NCBI GenBank assembly: GCA_951406725.2
Contig: OX597819.1
Location: 8,742,001 to 8,806,000, forward strand
Source: Octopus vulgaris
Lineage: Eukaryota
Direction: 5' to 3'
Length of the DNA: 64,000 nucleotides
Positions 13,514 to 49,810 of this stretch are shown piece by piece. How positions within the stretch are numbered: position 1 is the first letter of the stretch; each line of letters opens with the position of its first letter. Made by a program: the position numbers and the translations under genes. A model generated the notes under the pieces. It was not told the origin of the DNA and made no database searches. It saw nothing but the letters and a program-made list of their open reading frames with translations.

Positions 13514-13576
<63 letters not shown>

Positions 13577-13631
13577 CGGAGATGTACTCGCATAGCAAGT
13601 AATTTGATCTGAGATCGTGTGCTGAAACGAA

Positions 13632-13904
13632 AACAATTGCAGCGTAGAAGGTGTTTATAAGCCATTTAAGAAACACACAAAAGCCGTTCGATTCACTCCA
13701 ACATTTAAGTTTAATTTGTCAAAATATTTTCGTCGCTAAAATCCGCGACCTGTTCACTGACAAAGCACGGACTTTGTCAGTGAACAGGTCGCGGATTTTA
13801 GCGACGAAAATATTTTGACAAATTAAACTTAAATGTTGGAGTGAATCGAACGGCTTTTGTGTGTTTCTTAAATGGCTTATAAACACCTTCCACGCTGCAA
13901 TTGT

Positions 13905-13905
<1 letters not shown>
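13632..13905. repeat. 274-bp near-perfect palindrome between (TA)n arrays
   Basis: 134-bp arms, spacer cacgga at 13766-13771, one mismatch seen. Confidence 0.95.
13773..13822 (+). ncRNA. Type I hammerhead with G3-C8 core variant (mirror copy on - at 13715-13764)
   Basis: TTTGTCA-GTGAACA-G-GTCGC(ggatttta)GCGAC-GAAA-ATAT-TT-TGACAAA. Confidence 0.75.
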
Positions 13906-18960: not shown

Positions 18961-19504
18961 CTTCAGTGTGAGATAATCACAGATTAGTGACAAAAGCTTT
19001 CTCCACTTGCAGATGCTATATACTTTTTAAGCGACGCACAGTCGCTGGTCTCGTATAGAGAAAAACAACTTGTTTTAAATCTCTGAGTGAGTGAGTGAGG
19101 GATATACAGTAAGAGTACGAAAGTCAACTATCGTTGTTCGTTATCCGAGCACGCCAGAAAGATAACATCGGATGTCACTGCAATACCACACTTAATCAGC
19201 AACAATATAGGCTCTGCTGGCAATGGATGGTAGTATAGTAGCTACCTTGCCACATAGAATGTTTATAGACATTTCAATGATACCGGTTCATTTAAAGTTA
19301 CTGCCACTCATTTAAATGACAACTTTATTATACTGGAACATTGATTAGGTAATAAAATGTCAGATATTTTCATATGTAGCATAGTTTCAGTTTACTAATG
19401 GAAAAAGAAAACGCATATATGTTATATGTAATATATTATAATATTTTAAGATATGATGAAAACAATACGATATGCATTAGAGAGGAACATCATGACAGCA
19501 GATA

Positions 19505-24606: not shown

Positions 24607-24664
<58 letters not shown>

Positions 24665-25017
24665 TGATAGATAGATTCAGATGAATATAGTATTTAAGTT
24701 AAAGGCACCAGTATTTGGTATGGTATTATCCATATAAATCAAATGGGGTGATTATAATCAAAATAAGCAACAACAATATCCAAGTACAATTGTTTCATGC
24801 TACTTCCTTTTATTAAACACTGTATTATATCAATTTTAAAATGTCGAGCATAAATAAGTATAAAAATGTATGTTGTCCATTTAATTAACAAAATCTATAT
24901 GTGGCTGAAGATTGCTCGACATTTTAAAACTGATGTAATACATACAGTGGTTAATAAAATGAAGTAGCATGAAACTATTGTACTACACTACCTTGGATAT
25001 CCTTGTTGCTTATTTTG

Positions 25018-25059
<42 letters not shown>

Positions 25060-25681
25060 GTGTAGGAAGAAATGGAGCTGAACGAAGATTTAACAAAATT
25101 CCTTTTTATTATTTTCTACATATGGGACTTTGCAGCCTTTGAAACATATGTAGAAAATATTAAAAAGGAATTTTGTTAAATCTTCGTTCAGCTCCATTTC
25201 TTCCTACACTAAATATATAAACTTCAAATTTCCGCACTAAGGCACGGGTTTGAGACCCCATGGTCGTAACCTCAACCGTGATTTTTCTGTTGTGATTTTT
25301 GCTACCCAGGTATCGGTTATATTTTGAATAATCCGTAACAAGATAATTCATTTATCCATTTCAATATATATATTTATTGAAATGGATAAATGAATTATCT
25401 TGTTACGGATTATTCAATAGATAACCGATACCTGGGTAGCAAAAATCACAACAGAAAAATCACGGTTGAGGTTACGACCATGGGGTCTCAAACCCGTGCC
25501 TTAGTGCGGAAATTTGAAGTTTATATATTTAGTGTAGGAAGAAATGGAGCTGAACGAAGATTTAACAAAATTCCTTTTTAATATTTTCTACATATGTTTC
25601 AAAGGCTGCAAAGTCCCATATGTAGAAAATAATAAAAAGGAATTTTCTTAAATCTTCGTTCAGCTCCATTTCTTCCTACAC

Positions 25682-25741
<60 letters not shown>

Positions 25742-26104
25742 CAAAATAAGCAACAAGGATATCCAAGGTAGTGTAGTACAATAGTTTCATGCTACTTCAT
25801 TTTATTAACCACTGTAAGTATTACATCAGTTTTAAAATGTCGAGCAATCTTCAGCCACATATAGATTTTGTTAATTAAATGGACAACGTACATTTTTATA
25901 CTTATTTATGCTCGACATTTTAAAATTGATATAATACAGTGTTTAATAAAAGGAAGTAGCATGAAACAATTGTACTTGGATATCCTTGTTGCTTATTTTG
26001 ATTATAATCACCCCATTTGATTTATATGGATAATACCATACCAAATACTGGTGCCTTTAACTTAAATACTATATTCATCTGAATCTATCTATCAAATCTA
26101 TTTA

Positions 26105-28076: not shown

Positions 28077-29123
28077 TTAATTGTTTGTCGTAGACCCGTT
28101 AAGAAGTGGCTTGTATTTTGTAATAAAGAGATTTTCTTTACTTATTCTTTGTCTCGAGGTTGTATCGTCCCTAAATTGGTAGAGGGGGAAAATTCTGAAG
28201 TTTGGTGTTTTTTTGTTGGCGCAAGTATCTATGTGTTGGCTAAAAGCTATTTTTCTGTTTTGGGGAATTTTTATCTGGGATCTGTGCAGGGCCATTCGTT
28301 TACGCAAACCATTTTTTGTTTGGCCTATGTACTGCTCTTGACACCCGGAGCAGGTTAGTGTGTATATTAGGTTCTCCGAAGCACATGTGAAGTTGCTTTT
28401 CACTGTAAACCGTTGTCCCTGTTTGAAGGAGAACTCAGAACCCTCGATTAGATAGTCGCATATCCCGCAATTGGGTCTTCCACATTTTTTTACTGTCGGC
28501 TTCTGTGTTGAAGAGTGAATTCGGGCTTGTGTAAGGAGACTTTTCATGGATCTAGGCTGTCTTTTGCTTTTTATGATCGTGTGTGTTTGGAGGATTGTGT
28601 TCATTCTGTGGTCTTTTTTTAGGAGGGGTATGTTGTGGAGGATGGTGTCGAAGGCTTCGTTATTGAGAGGGTTGTGTGTGGAGATGTATGGTAAGGCTTT
28701 TGGTTGTAAGTTTTTCTTTGATTTGGGATGTCTCAGTTCCTTGATGTTAAGTTGAAGGGCACGTTGAATGCACTTGTCAATAAGTGAAGGTGGATAGTTC
28801 CTGGTGATTAGGGTATCTTTTAGTTCTTGTAGTCGTGTGTCTCTGGTGTTTGCGTTAGAGACTATAGTGCATATCCTTTTTGCTAGATTGAAGGGGATAT
28901 TCATCCTGGTGTGTCTGGGGTGGCATGAATTGAATGGAAGATATTGCTTAGAGTCTGTAGGCTTATAGTATATGTCTGTTTCTATTATATTATTAGCTTT
29001 CTTAATGAGGATATCGAGGAAGGGGAGTTGTTGTTGGCTATATTCCATCGTGAATTGGATGTTTACGTCCAGTCCGTTTAAAATTTTCTGGAATTCTATG
29101 AGTTTTTCTATATTTTTATGCCA
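28077..29123 (-). CDS. PLE reverse transcriptase C-terminus/thumb plus GIY-YIG endonuclease (truncated but uninterrupted)
   Basis: WHKNIEKLIEFQKILNGLDVNIQFTME..LPFLD..YYKPTD..YL..SCHP; CGRPNCGIC; NLIY..C..C..YIGQT..R...H; E..FI..LN. Confidence 0.9.
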   Translation of the reverse strand, partial: WHKNIEKLIEFQKILNGLDVNIQFTMEYSQQQLPFLDILIKKANNIIETDIYYKPTDSKQYLPFNSCHPRHTRMNIPFNLAKRICTIVSNANTRDTRLQELKDTLITRNYPPSLIDKCIQRALQLNIKELRHPKSKKNLQPKALPYISTHNPLNNEAFDTILHNIPLLKKDHRMNTILQTHTIIKSKRQPRSMKSLLTQARIHSSTQKPTVKKCGRPNCGICDYLIEGSEFSFKQGQRFTVKSNFTCASENLIYTLTCSGCQEQYIGQTKNGLRKRMALHRSQIKIPQNRKIAFSQHIDTCANKKTPNFRIFPLYQFRDDTTSRQRISKENLFITKYKPLLNGSTTNN

Positions 29124-29237
29124 TATATATATATATATTTATATATATATATATATATATATATACAAAAGGAGGCAGAGAATATTAAGAAAATCGATAT
29201 CAAAATACGAAATTATTAAGACACAGACAGACACATC

Positions 29238-40313: not shown

Positions 40314-40500
40314 TATATATTAGCAGAAATACCCGGCGTTGTCCGGGTTAAAGACGATAAAGAAATTAAAAATCGCCGTCTAGATTACGTAGGTCGCAAC
40401 TCTTAGTAGCTGAGATACCAACTTTCTACATTAATAACTCTCCAACCCATGCCAGCGTGGAACATAGACGTTAAGTGAAATGTTGAAAGAATGTTTTCAA

Positions 40501-40574
<74 letters not shown>

Positions 40575-40584
<10 letters not shown>

Positions 40585-40901
40585 TATTAGAGACAAAACC
40601 ACTATTTTGCAAAACAAACAAGGAAAGACTTAATCAATACATAAAATTTTAATAAATAGTCAAAAAAACCGCCACTACAATCGTTTCTTGTCTTGATCGA
40701 CAATCTTCAGGTGGACTTCCAATAAGTCAGTTTCAAATTATGAAACTGACTTATTGGAAGTCCACCTGAAGATTGTCGATCAAGACAAGAAACGATTGTA
40801 GTGGCGGTTTTTTTGACTATTTATTAAAATTTTATGTATTGATTAAGTCTTTCCTTGTTTGTTTTGCAAAATAGTGGTTTTGTCTCTAATAATATTTTAT
40901 A
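40575..40901. repeat. ~325-bp palindrome between (TA)n arrays
   Basis: ~160-bp arms around spacer aatta (40736-40740); the right arm continues to (TA)n at ~40985. Confidence 0.95.
40762..40804 (+). ncRNA. Canonical type I hammerhead (mirror copy on - at 40672-40714)
   Basis: CCAC-CTGAAGA-TTGTC(gatcaa)GACAA-GAAA-CGATTG-TA-GTGG. Confidence 0.88.
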
Positions 40902-41094
40902 ATATTTTACTATAAAATTGGATTTAATCCTAAATCTGATTTTTTTTCCCTGTAAATTTGGATTTATTCCCTAATATTTATTATTATATATATATATATA
41001 TATATATAAAGTAAAAACACGTAATTCAAAAACACATTTTGTGTAGCTTATTTCGTAACAAAGACACGGGTACAGATTATAAACAATGAAAGAC

Positions 41095-41450
41095 CGATTT
41101 TGACGATTCATTTGACAGAAGTAGTAAAGAGTCAATCCGATGATAAATCTGACCTTGGATCTTGAAAGCTTGCATCAATCCTGGCTCAGTTAAATCTCTT
41201 GTGGCTCCAAATGATGTCATCTGTAGAGCAACACTGTATTGACTAATTTTGTTCTGGAAGCGCTTGGAATCTTAGTCAGTTGATGACAACAGTTTCTTCA
41301 ATGACTGTGGAGGTTGGGGGATTACTGGGAGTTTAACCTTTCCACCACTGCAGCACAGTGCAGGTGTCTCTCCAGGCCACTTCTTTGTTTTACAATGCAT
41401 GCACTCAGTTGTCATTGCACCAATGGAAACTCTAGTGTCGTCTGCATAAT
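41095..41450 (-). pseudogene. Helitron RepHel N-terminal remnant
   Basis: IGAMTTECMHCKTKKWPGETPALCCSGGKVKLP...PP..L...*...F..QMTSFGA...FKIQGQIYHRIDSLL; one in-frame stop. Confidence 0.85.
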
Positions 41451-41949
41451 GAACTGCCGGATCATAATTGAAAGCTGCTTCATAGAGGTTGCTTCTCTGA
41501 GCTGTTGCAACTGTTCTTCGTTCTGCAGTGGAGATCCTATTCCTAGTCAGCTGTGCATACCTCTGTTCATTTACTCGCTACAGAAAACACGTAGAGCTGA
41601 AATCGAGGAAAGCTAGCCAACAGGATTCTTTCTAAGAAGTTCGTTATTTCTATATTGAATCAATTTCGGAATAAATCTCATAATAGATTTTTTCCTCCAG
41701 TAGAAAATACAAAAAGAAATAAATGAAATACTTACATGCACCCATGGAAAAAAGCCGAGGCAAAAATCATGAGTATATATAAGAACCCCAGATATATCTA
41801 AATATAAAATCCTTTTGTCAGCCTCAGTACACGTGAACTGTTCTCCACTACAGCTTATAAGCTATAAGCTCTACTACAGCTTATAAGCGTCCCTGGAAAA
41901 TGATGAGTGATCTGGAAGACCTGCCACCAACGTCACCCCCGGAAATTCA

Positions 41950-43990: not shown

Positions 43991-44965
43991 TGGGTCTTCC
44001 GGAAAGTTTATGCCGATTTTTAAAGGAAAGAAAGAGGTCAATAAATACTTGCCATTACATTTTTAATCAACCAAATATGAACCATTTTGTTGCACAATGC
44101 GTCTCCATCTTTACTTAAGCTTGAAAATACTCTTTTCCTAGAATTGAGGTGGTTTCATGACAAAGAATTCATCAAGGTATCTTTTTACGTCATCCAAGGA
44201 ATTAAAATTTTTACCGTTAAGACTATGCTGCAGAGGCTTGAATAAGTGGAAATCCGAAGAAGCAATATTTGGTGAATACGGAGAGTGGGGTAACACATCC
44301 CAGCCGAGCTGCAGCAATTTTTGTCTGGTTCCCAAAGAAACGTGCGGTCTTACATTATCATGTTGGAATACAACATCCTTCCTGTCGGCCAATTCTGGAC
44401 GTTTCTCTTGAATTGCTGCTTTTAACTCGTCCAGTTGTATGCAGTATTTCTCAGAATTAATTGTCTAGTTACTTCGGAGAAGCTCAGAGTACAGAATTCC
44501 TTTCCAATCCCACCAGACACAAAGCAAGACATTTTTAGGGTGAAGAGCCACTTTTGCGGTGGCTAAGGGTGGCTCATGTTGTTTACTCCAGGATCGCTTT
44601 CTCTAGATAATCCATCACCTGTCACAATTTGCTTTAAAAAAGGTGCATTTTCATTCCGTTTATAAAGAGAATCACAGATGGAAATGCGATCCAAAAGGTT
44701 CTTCTCATTCAACTCATGTGGTACCCAAACATCGTAGCAATTTGTGTACCCAAGCTTTACCAGGTGCTCATGAACGACGGATGTTGATTGGTTGAGGCTT
44801 TCTGCCAATTCTTGGGTTATGCAATGTAGGTTATTCTCAATTAATGACTTGATTTGGTCATCATCTGTAGTGGATGGCCTGTCTGATCGCTCTTTATCAA
44901 AATGGCTACAATCTCCAGCTTTGAACCTTGCGAACCACTTACGTACTGTACTTTCGGATAAAGAA
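43990..44965 (-). mobile_element. Mariner transposase pseudogene with right TIR
   Basis: WVPHEL, IVTGD, HDNVRPH, PHSPYSPNIASSDFHLF (DD34D mariner); frameshifted. Confidence 0.92.
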
Positions 44966-46043
44966 ACAAATAATATATATGTATATATATAATATATATA
45001 TATTTAATAAATTTAATAAATTATGTGATTGGGTATTATCTGATAGTTGATCATTGATTAAGATGTGTTTCTCCATTTTCTTATTTTGTATATATATACA
45101 TATATATTTACGTGTGATATATATATACATTTACCTGTGTGTGTTGTATATATCTCTTATTATAAAAGGCAGATTTTATCTGCCTCCCTTTGGGAGTTAT
45201 AGAAATCTACAATATAGGATTTCTTCAATTACAATTTACCTAGCATTTTTAAGAGTACAATGCATCGCGTCATGCCAGGTCCAGTTTTTAAAATTTAAAC
45301 TCCAATTAAGCAAAATTTACAGAAAACTCACATTCTGGTGTGTGTGTCAAATGCTTTTCTTAGTCTGGTTTACACCACACGCAAACGCACACATACAGTG
45401 TGCAACGAATAAAGTGAAACTAGATGTAATATTTGTTTCTGTCTATGACGCTGATAGATACATGAGTAAAATGTATGGGAAGCTAACACATAAGAGTGAG
45501 TTAAAATGTTCTTGGAAGAGAGTAAATAGCGACAGAGAGTGATTTGAGGAGGACTTTACATTAAATAACCGTAGTGGCTTGTGTTAGTAATAAAGTAAAC
45601 ATACACTCATACATACATACATACATACATACATACATACATACATACATACATACATACATACATACATACACACACATACATACACACACACACACAT
45701 ACATACACACACACATACATACATACACACATACATACATACATACATATACATACATACACACACACACACATACACACACACACAGTATTGAAGCTTG
45801 AGAACAATCAGATACATTTGCAACACATCTGTTGAAAATATTATTGTTCACACACATACATATACATATATACATACAGACAGACAGACAGACAGACAGA
45901 CAGATAGACACACACACACACACACACACACATGATACAGCATGGCCACAACCTCAAGGCTGAAACATATAAAAGAATAACAGAATATAAATGTGTGCAT
46001 GTGTGTGTGAGAGAGAGTGTGTGTGTATATGTATGTATGTATG

Positions 46044-46089: not shown

Positions 46090-46665
46090 TCAACAGCTTG
46101 AACTAAAAGTCAGAGGGGAATGGGATAAACCACTTATATTAACTTGCTATAAAAGCAGGTAGTAATTTTATCTTGTCTTTATTCATAGTGTAAGTTTTGA
46201 AGAGTGCATTTCGATTTTAACAGCTATTTTTTTCAAAGCTATATTGGAAGTAACAAAGGAGCATATTTGGCATATTTTGCTTTATGAGTTCAATAAAGAC
46301 AACAACGCAACAGAAAGTACAAGAAATATTAATGCAGTATATGGGGATTGGACAATAAGCGTAAGGCAGTGTCAATGGTGGTTCCAGAAATTCCGAGCCA
46401 TAAACTACAGCCTAGAAGACGAGCCTCATCCTGAAAGATCTGTAGAACTCGACAAGGACATCCTGAAAACCCTGGTGGAACAAAATCTCATCGTAACTGT
46501 TGAGGAACTAGCAGAGAAGCTTGGATTTGGTCATTCAACCATTCATTGAGACCTGTGTGCTATCGGAAAAGTCAGCAAATTGGGTCAATGGGTTCCTCAC
46601 GAACTTTCCGAGTCTAATTGCATGCAGAGAGTGAATGTATGCTTTTCTTTGCTGTCACATCTCAC
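46090..46665 (+). mobile_element. Mariner 5' half
   Basis: EVTKEHIWHILLYEF...WWFQKFR...LEDEPH...WVPHEL; ends next to a Helitron. Confidence 0.88.
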
Positions 46666-48739: not shown

Positions 48740-49810
48740 GAAGTTGAAAATGCATTGAGAATAGTTAAAATATTTTTTATTAATATATTTTAAGCTTTAA
48801 CCGGTTTCACAGTTTACACTGATTTTCAAAAAGTTCAAATAGAAAGACGTGGCTTATGCCGCAGCTGTATTGCTTCTGACTAGTGTTTGAAGTTTGCTCT
48901 GTTTTTATAGGGAGTTCATGGCTCAAACTAGTATAAGTTTTGAACAGGATTCGATTGGCAGAGAATAGTCACATGACTGGTCTTAGAAATCTTTGTAGGT
49001 TCCCCGCTACGTCCGTGTTTTAGTATCAAGTGACAAAGTTTGGTGTCGTAAGTTAAGGCTGACACGGTTGACTGAACAAGTCCAAACAATCAATGCTCTG
49101 GATGTTTTCCGTCAAGTGTTTGTAGAGAATGAACAGATGATTAAGTTTACAATCTTTTGTACGTTTCCTGCTCCGTCCGTGCGTTAGTGTCACGTGACAG
49201 TATATTTTGCGCCTAAAAAGAAGACCGACACGGTTGAGTGAACATCTTTACTTATAATCAAAGCACTCCTAATTTAATCTGCCTGGTGGGAGAGTGGACA
49301 GTAGTCGTTTGTGTGTAGTCTAATGGTTAAAATTTAGGTTGTTAGCTGTGTAGCTTCTTCATGGTAAGTGGCAGAAAGAATTTGTGTATGTACTCTGTCA
49401 AAGTTTCTTAATTCTTGGCTTGTACTTTTTGATGAAAGTATTTTCTTTGTTTATCCTTGCTTCATCTGCGGTATTCGCTGAACATGGGTAGAGTGGGAAG
49501 ACCTGGAATTTAGGTGACTTATTTTTTGCATATATAGCAATATGACCACTCAGTGGAATCTGTCTAGTAGTGGGGTCTCGTATTTGTTGTCTGTAAATGG
49601 TCAGTCTATTTCTCAGAGTAAGCTTTGTTTGACTTATGTCATTATCTCCTGGACATTTAGTAGCGTATATCAAATTACTTGAAGAACATGTAAAGTTATT
49701 TTTTTACGGTAAACGTCTGTCCTGATTTTAATTTATAAGGTTGATGCAGGTCCGCAATTGGGGCGGCCAGATTTTTTGACTGTTGGTGTAGGAATCCTGT
49801 GGTTTTATGT
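48740..49810 (-). mobile_element. Degenerate PLE 3' portion (GIY-YIG remnant plus pLTR)
   Basis: IYATKCPG...ISQTK..LRNRLTIYRQQI..IPLSGHI..KENTFIKKYKP, homologous to the 28-kb ORF; HHR downstream. Confidence 0.85.
48795..48833 (-). ncRNA. Minimal hammerhead, U3-A8 variant
   Basis: CTTT-TTGAAAA-tCAGT(gtaa)ACTGt-GAAA-CCGG-TT-AAAG. Confidence 0.75.

Follow-up and report, generated by a model that had tools for sequence, protein, structure and literature searches.

The analysed window, a 64,000-nucleotide stretch of the Octopus vulgaris genome (contig OX597819.1, positions 8,742,001 to 8,806,000, forward strand), contains a perfect inverted repeat with arms of 161 bp (40575-40735 and 40741-40901, 0 mismatches) separated by the spacer AATTA at 40736-40740. 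The right arm continues for 84 bp beyond the left-arm match, to about 40985. An earlier note on this DNA, made from the letters alone, had described arms of about 160 bp without mismatch, a 5-nt spacer, hammerhead ribozymes (HHRs) diverging from the centre, one longer arm and (TA)n on both sides, and each of these points holds: the two hammerhead cores, at 40766 (+) and 40710 (-), point outward, and TA runs occupy 40505-40578 and 40985-41008. The element is one of three perfect palindromes of non-simple sequence in the 64-kb window whose arms reach 25 bp or more, the other two lying at 13647-13890 and 25324-25417. A palindrome with arms of about 700 bp and 99% complementarity is also seen at 24664-26095. 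The features of the locus are as follows.

40505..40578, no strand: left (TA)n target microsatellite, assigned by sequence; its last bases overlap the arm end
40575..40735, minus strand: short arm, a copy of the predicted spliced 5' UTR; its outer end falls on the inner of the two fixed sites (RNA position about 172)
40672..40714, minus strand: mirror copy of the minimal type I hammerhead motif, with its core at 40710 and the cut predicted after 40676
40723..40724, minus strand: exon 1/exon 2 splice junction, mirror copy
40736..40744, no strand: centre, made of the AATTA spacer and the TGAA common to both arms
40741..40985, plus strand: long arm, positions 12-256 of the predicted spliced transcript; its outer end falls on the other fixed site
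40752..40753, plus strand: exon 1/exon 2 junction GACTT/ATTGG; long copies hold a 1,818-nt GT-AG intron here
40762..40804, plus strand: minimal type I hammerhead, predicted cut after 40800, assigned from the motif and from genomic ends at the homologous site elsewhere; stem I 40762-40765/40801-40804, CTGAAGA 40766-40772, stem II 40773-40788, GAAA 40789-40792, stem III 40793-40798
40902..40985, plus strand: tail of 84 bp that separates the two fixed end sites; long copies run on for about 55 nt to the ORF start
40985..41008, no strand: right (TA)n target microsatellite

In the 2.8 Gb assembly (227 contigs) the arm sequence has 1,397 candidate matches, and all 40 that were scored are 98-100% identical; one 25-mer of the arm has 3,126 exact matches. 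Of the 30 loci first viewed, most are palindromes that share both outer ends but differ in their centres. Family membership, the fixed ends and the variability of the centres are direct observations. The window palindrome is one of many near-identical insertions from the intron-less 5' end of a young Penelope-type element (PLE). The copies are not pristine, as the arms of a pair differ by about 0.45 substitutions on average (19 in 42 pairs). Taken as a single locus, the window element is inert repeat debris and ordinary; as a family, the copies are useful and give unusually direct clues to PLE insertion.

The flanks at 40325-40350 and 41272-41577 (-) we take to be Helitron-like by a terminal motif and a piece of a Cys-rich ORF; a Pfam search of these flank pieces gave no match. 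Elsewhere in the window, mariner-like transposase remnants were recognized by eye at 44138-45003 and 46166-46549 (-). The 3' remnants of another PLE ORF lie at 28077-29138 (-) and 49398-49703 (-), the former matching Pfam GIY-YIG with E=1.4e-4, just under the cut-off.

The parent element was reached through a copy with a longer centre, whose upstream sequence has 219 matches and led to kilobase copies. In one of them (L132), a 5,998-bp tandem unit consists of a 23-nt exon 1, the 1,818-nt GT-AG intron, exon 2, which carries the hammerhead and the tail, and an ORF of 838 aa. The ORF has the RT motif YRDD at residue 359 and YIG at 731 and can be aligned over its full length with eight homologues; its named protein matches come from octopods. 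It further contains DKT at residue 128, the CxCX5C linker CTCRDKSNC at 689, the CxxC motif CYLC at 795 and the CxH motif CRH at 824. At residue 43 it has KWK, where the homologues have RWK or RWR, and there is no GxK/RF. An Asn-rich insert follows the RT at residues about 495-610 (41% Asn), as is likewise described for rotifer Penelope elements (PMC3846280). Searches of this ORF against Pfam and PDB gave no relevant match, and it is by its motifs that we identify it as a putative EN+ PLE protein combining an RT with a GIY-YIG-type endonuclease.

The family most probably belongs to the Hydra clade, whose text definition (Craig et al., 2021, PMC8557442) matches the motifs; the (TA)n target and the hammerhead agree. 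As in the Hydra-clade elements described there, a single ORF with a C-terminal GIY-YIG-type domain, DKT, CxCX5C, and CxxC plus CxH near the end, with no CCHH, is combined with a hammerhead and with targeting of (TA)n. The octopus family departs from that description in having KWK for RWK/RWR, a unit of 6.0 kb as against less than 3 kb, a 1.8-kb intron in the 5' UTR, the Asn-rich insert after the RT, a tail of 84 bp as against 30-40 bp, and many copies without the intron. The Neptune clade was considered and rejected, the ORF having neither the CX2-5CxxC linker pattern nor, by eye, CCHH.

Several PLE hallmarks are found in the family: the partial tandem (pLTR), the inverted 5'-truncated copy and the 84-bp tail. 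The architecture is not new but is the published footprint of EN+ PLEs, namely a head-to-head inverted pLTR with an optional tail in (TA)n (PMC3846280, PMC8557442). The insertions described by Arkhipova et al. (2013, PMC3846280) and Schostak et al. (2008, PMC2377424) share the head-to-head repeat, the shorter inverted arm and the tail at one end, as well as an Inr-like TCACT and Asn-rich ORF inserts; a 5' UTR intron ending just before the hammerhead has been described for EN+ PLEs too (PMC4209133).

In both window arms, exon 1 is joined exactly to exon 2; the 1,818-nt intron is gone, and there is no microhomology at the join. Exact removal of the intron is visible directly, and because a GT-AG intron was removed exactly and without microhomology, the template of the spliced copies was most probably a spliced sense RNA; such exact loss is incompatible with these copies having had an antisense template. 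A second donor lies 4 nt downstream, and copies made from it are seen for each of the two donor variants that the long copies have. By hand count, the first 100 of the 688 arms listed comprise 43 spliced and 57 intron-retaining arms. Fifteen copies read through the tail: nine have an intact 5' side and ORF, all nine being unspliced, five start downstream of the splice site, and one is spliced and ends before the ATG. Over half of the inner ends in 23 young pairs (24/46) fall in the first 20 nt, many of them at or a few bases from the A of TCACTT; this pile-up suggests that A as the transcription start. Both the start and the splicing are deduced from DNA: the arm sequence occurs in one public run presumed to be RNA, but since spliced copies are also present as DNA, this is no evidence of transcription or splicing. 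The available text of PMC3846280 and PMC2377424 stresses intron retention and suggests antisense self-priming, whereas the octopus copies point to a spliced sense template.

To count arm combinations, the first 100 matches on contig C1 were analysed with exact-match patterns, yielding 34 close head-to-head pairs. Outside this set are L148 and L152, with centre inserts longer than 120 nt, solo arms and intron-containing arms; the older variants L149, L153 and L167 have no megablast map, and L162 and L180 were left unscored as pairs. An end at about 172 is joined to an end at about 255 in 32 of the 34 pairs, the exceptions being L116 (long plus long) and L150 (short plus short). All ten long pairs that were mapped also combine a short-site with a long-site end, and solo arms terminate at either site. 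The arm nearer to the RNA 5' end is the short one in 13 pairs and the long one in 13, a count from which 40 hand-picked loci were kept out, and the arms are equal in six; where they differ by at least 10 nt, the short arm is nearer in eight pairs and the long arm in seven.

Some irregular loci were noted on the way. L116 (1490-2312) and L150 (1751-2464) each lie beside a third arm of the other type across (TA)n. About 130 nt of unrelated sequence is captured between the arms in the centres of L152 and L237. The spliced palindrome L224 has a long arm that overshoots the usual outer site by about 45 nt, which gives a rare third end.

Palindromes beside (TA)n are hard to assemble, and the pairs might be suspected to be fold-back chimeras of the assembly or the libraries. 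This would hardly produce asymmetric outer ends fixed in nearly all pairs, and in all four public short-read runs (4/4) contigs cover the centre-spanning bins of 40722-40985; two of the runs show centre variants resembling other genomic copies. The short-read support refers to such junctions in the family and not to this exact locus, and one run may be the source of the assembly. We consider an artefact the least probable of the explanations discussed here, close to negligible.

The two arms of a pair match each other directly. Their splice state agrees in 24 of 24 close pairs, where about 49% mixed pairs would be expected from two random RNAs, and three diagnostic variants agree in 124 of 125 comparisons from 46 distinct pairs. 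Because both kinds of marker are concordant, the two arms derive from one template RNA.

Twin priming on one RNA is the simplest reading of these data, since the evidence for one template is joined by an in vitro result for the PAc Poseidon element, in which the PLE protein cuts and extends both strands of an AT-rich target and reverse transcription begins at two internal positions of the RNA that delimit the tail (Frangieh et al., 2024, PMC11167929). Its starts lie inside the ORF, whereas both octopus sites precede the ATG; the accessible text of that paper gives no inverted-arm model and reports no RNA ends at the ribozyme cut. The most natural explanation of the octopus pairs, which we regard as probable, is that they are head-to-head DNA copies of the 5' end of a spliced Hydra-clade PLE RNA, primed on both sides of an opened (TA)n and then joined.

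The following order of events can be proposed. Transcription of the RNA would begin at the A of TCACTT. The element's protein would open the (TA)n site, and each DNA end would prime reverse transcription at its own fixed position of the same RNA molecule, the two positions lying 84 nt from each other. cDNAs of about 170 and 255 nt would result where the first, spliced 5' UTR is primed, and kilobase copies that retain the intron where the downstream tandem unit is primed. The later cDNA would displace the earlier one or stall, and host end joining would seal the centre via short matches, in the window copy through TGAA. The short copies would mostly be dead ends, each produced anew; the hammerhead would sometimes cut the RNA and would be a passenger in the window copy. 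In LINE-1 twin priming, both ends of the target prime on the same RNA, and microhomology joins the products into a head-to-head inversion; the octopus pairs differ from it in having a fixed second site and two cDNAs that mostly overlap over nearly their whole length. The complete scheme, with one sense RNA copied from both (TA)n cut ends, intron retention in coding copies due simply to priming in the downstream unit, hundreds of spliced palindromes as dead ends, and a hammerhead that cuts in vivo and whose monomer is sometimes inserted, is offered tentatively, as a serious possibility.

Another scenario, which amounts to the earlier note's mechanism minus the ribozyme, is that a single cDNA started from the outer site turns back on itself close to the 5' end of the RNA (fold-back) and serves as its own template, the inner-site end being produced by an endonuclease or by annealing and the centre being scrambled later by inversion or deletion. 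The constant agreement of the arms in splice state and variants fits it equally well. Self-priming of PLE palindromes has been put forward in the literature (PMC3846280), as has resolution of the tail by the endonuclease (PMC8557442). The commonest centre, TTCA-5nt-TGAA, is a possible hairpin. Genome-wide, this centre occurs 20 times as TAATT, eight times as AATTA, the form of the window, and three times in mixed form, and the second common centre is CT in 17 cases and AG in 10; both orientations occur across several sequence variants. When near-complete centres are pooled, they are skewed 37:18 toward the orientation compatible with fold-back (p=0.014), so that either the insertion process is asymmetric or fold-back contributes. 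The three mixed centres are as expected from one switch from the short to the long arm, and point mutation could also produce them.

On the other side, the AATTA of the window copy is the short arm's own 5'-proximal sequence, and this minority orientation (8/28) is not directly obtainable by fold-back. One-cDNA fold-back alone cannot make about half of the pairs, because their short arm holds sequence absent from the long arm; it needs a second event in about half of the young pairs (10 of 21 unequal pairs, at least 94% identity). The arms of L163 do not overlap at all (19-172 and 201-256), in L118 and L050 the short arm is complete to position 1 while the long arm starts from 153 or 116, and in the pairs 127/128, 129/130 and 134/135 kilobases including ORF sequence are present only in the short-end arm. 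Both arms are complete to position 1 in L056 and L058. The spacers of L107, L114 and L154, at 0-1 nt, are too short to hold a hairpin loop. The existence of solo short arms within (TA)n shows that the inner site can act as an end independently of the outer one. Long AT-rich palindromes get revised by central deletion, and many of the otherwise impossible pairs could have arisen from fold-back products whose spacer was inverted, or whose centre was asymmetrically deleted, at a later time. We consider fold-back unlikely, though a contender to be reckoned with; two cDNAs from two fixed sites, joined end to end, fit the census better than hairpin self-priming. The balance of the arms and the two centre orientations provide a countable test between two-ended priming and fold-back.

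The high copy number, the 98-100% identity and the recurrence of some centre types dozens of times would also be expected if the 410-bp palindrome were a self-propagating non-autonomous element, retrozyme-like or MITE-like, copied whole from a few masters. Animal non-LTR retrozymes are likewise short, non-coding, PLE-derived and equipped with a type I hammerhead (bioRxiv 10.64898/2026.07.22.740005; PMC7229834), and one locus (L029) holds three tandem 107-nt hammerhead units. However, the centres vary widely, and the same types recur in sequence variants that mirror the variants of the long copies. A full transcript would form a hairpin of 161 bp (-276 kcal/mol), hiding the ribozyme and the inner site. 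Retrozymes, as far as the preprint text describes them, are tandem arrays of at least two head-to-tail units (bioRxiv 10.64898/2026.07.22.740005), whereas the window has no tandem array and its element consists of head-to-head single units from a spliced 5' UTR; among the short copies viewed, tandem units occur only in L029. The asymmetric outer ends match PLE ends and not transposase-type terminal repeats. Self-propagation is improbable on this evidence. The L029 locus itself (1050-1780) is a spliced palindromic copy with its three units head to tail, a possible seed of a retrozyme-like array.

The remaining question concerns the role of the hammerhead. The descriptor matches at CTGAAGA 40766 (+) and at its mirror 40710 (-), with stem II TTGTC/GACAA, GAAA, stem III CGATTG, the triplet GTA and stem I CCAC/GTGG; it found no match in 100 window shuffles (0/100) and 5,000 arm shuffles (0/5,000), all of them dinucleotide-block shuffles. 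The two window ribozymes are one sequence present twice, via the two arms. The core had been called canonical, which is right for its boxes: CUGANGA, GAAA and NUH are present together with three stems, stem I being 4 bp long. It does not extend to the 10.1-11.1 pair at the base of stem II, which is U-A and not the G-C of PLE minimal hammerheads. Stem III is CGATTG, a wobble palindrome, or CAATTG, a perfect one, in the great majority of family copies; PLE ribozymes with a short palindromic stem III are thought to act as dimers (PMC4209133). Rfam gave no hammerhead match on the arm up to E=10, and for the whole window no hammerhead family is among the matches listed (150 of 236), which are mostly miRNA models on microsatellites and hairpins. 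The minimum-energy fold of the free RNA contains no hammerhead (z=0.32), a fold constrained to it having -9.2 kcal/mol as against -12.8 kcal/mol for the preferred one. Further descriptor matches in the window are seen at 18966 (-) and 16774 (-), the latter with a long stem II.

Genome-wide, a pattern search found seven arms at six loci that start exactly after the predicted cut, and 7/7 are true junctions. Controls at two start positions, +2 and +3, gave two and five pattern matches with no true junction (0/2 and 0/5); the pattern is blind to junctions preceded by A. In one palindrome (L185/186) both arms start at the predicted cut, and L232 begins there, to within one shared base, and continues via the ORF to the next tail. 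The cut-site ends are real but a small class. They may reflect occasional cleavage of the RNA by the hammerhead in vivo, for which they are indirect evidence.

The same ends are what would be expected if hammerhead cleavage made the RNA end that forms the centre, with the paired ribozymes functional in the palindrome. This is very improbable. The window copy and most others keep the complete ribozyme together with some 60 nt on the 5' side of the cut. In the window copy both arms pass the cut site by about 60 nt, to the inferred transcription start, and none of the 46 arm ends in the 23 young pairs lies at RNA positions 70-73, where the cut is. The two motifs are on opposite strands and cannot share one RNA in the same sense, and ribozyme mutants had no effect on insertion in vitro in the data available from PMC11167929. 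The hammerhead is a passenger in the window copy, whose centre is not set by the predicted cut. A further cluster of inner ends covers RNA positions 78-101, where a T run and a short internal palindrome lie immediately 3' of the ribozyme; it could stem from trimming of cut-site ends, from pauses of the RT or from microhomology.

The earlier note had proposed hairpin-primed second-strand synthesis from HHR-containing RNA ends as a general mechanism. An origin from RNA and its generality stand, but the centre is not made by the HHR, and about half of the pairs could not be made directly in this way. In the open-access literature, taken without supplements (those of Craig et al. may list the family), we found no spliced genomic PLE copies, no twin priming for PLE inversions and no report of PLE copy ends at the ribozyme cut site. 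As far as this search extends, the layout is known, and the spliced copies and the cut-site ends are the apparent novelty of the octopus family. The inverted ends of PLEs, their keeping of introns and hammerhead cutting in vivo are posed as open questions in the accessible parts of PMC3846280, PMC8557442 and PMC11167929. With an apparently intact ORF and a short, defined RNA substrate, the octopus family would make inverted ends, introns and ribozyme cutting testable in vitro.

A further instance of this architecture is provided by the 13.6-kb element of the window (13575-13905), for which the earlier note had claimed the same layout with unrelated sequence. This is borne out: it represents a separate family, likewise present in many copies and with one arm longer than the other, comprising 759 candidates, of which 40 were scored and all are 100% identical. 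The long end of this second PLE family is at about 192 and the short end at about 135, and the hammerhead-like core is not canonical. Its long copies have an upstream segment ending in AG, and at one locus (L230) a frameshifted PLE ORF lies about 1.7 kb upstream. Because the 13.6-kb element belongs to a different PLE family with a PLE ORF in L230, the recurrence of the architecture is real and reflects shared PLE biology.
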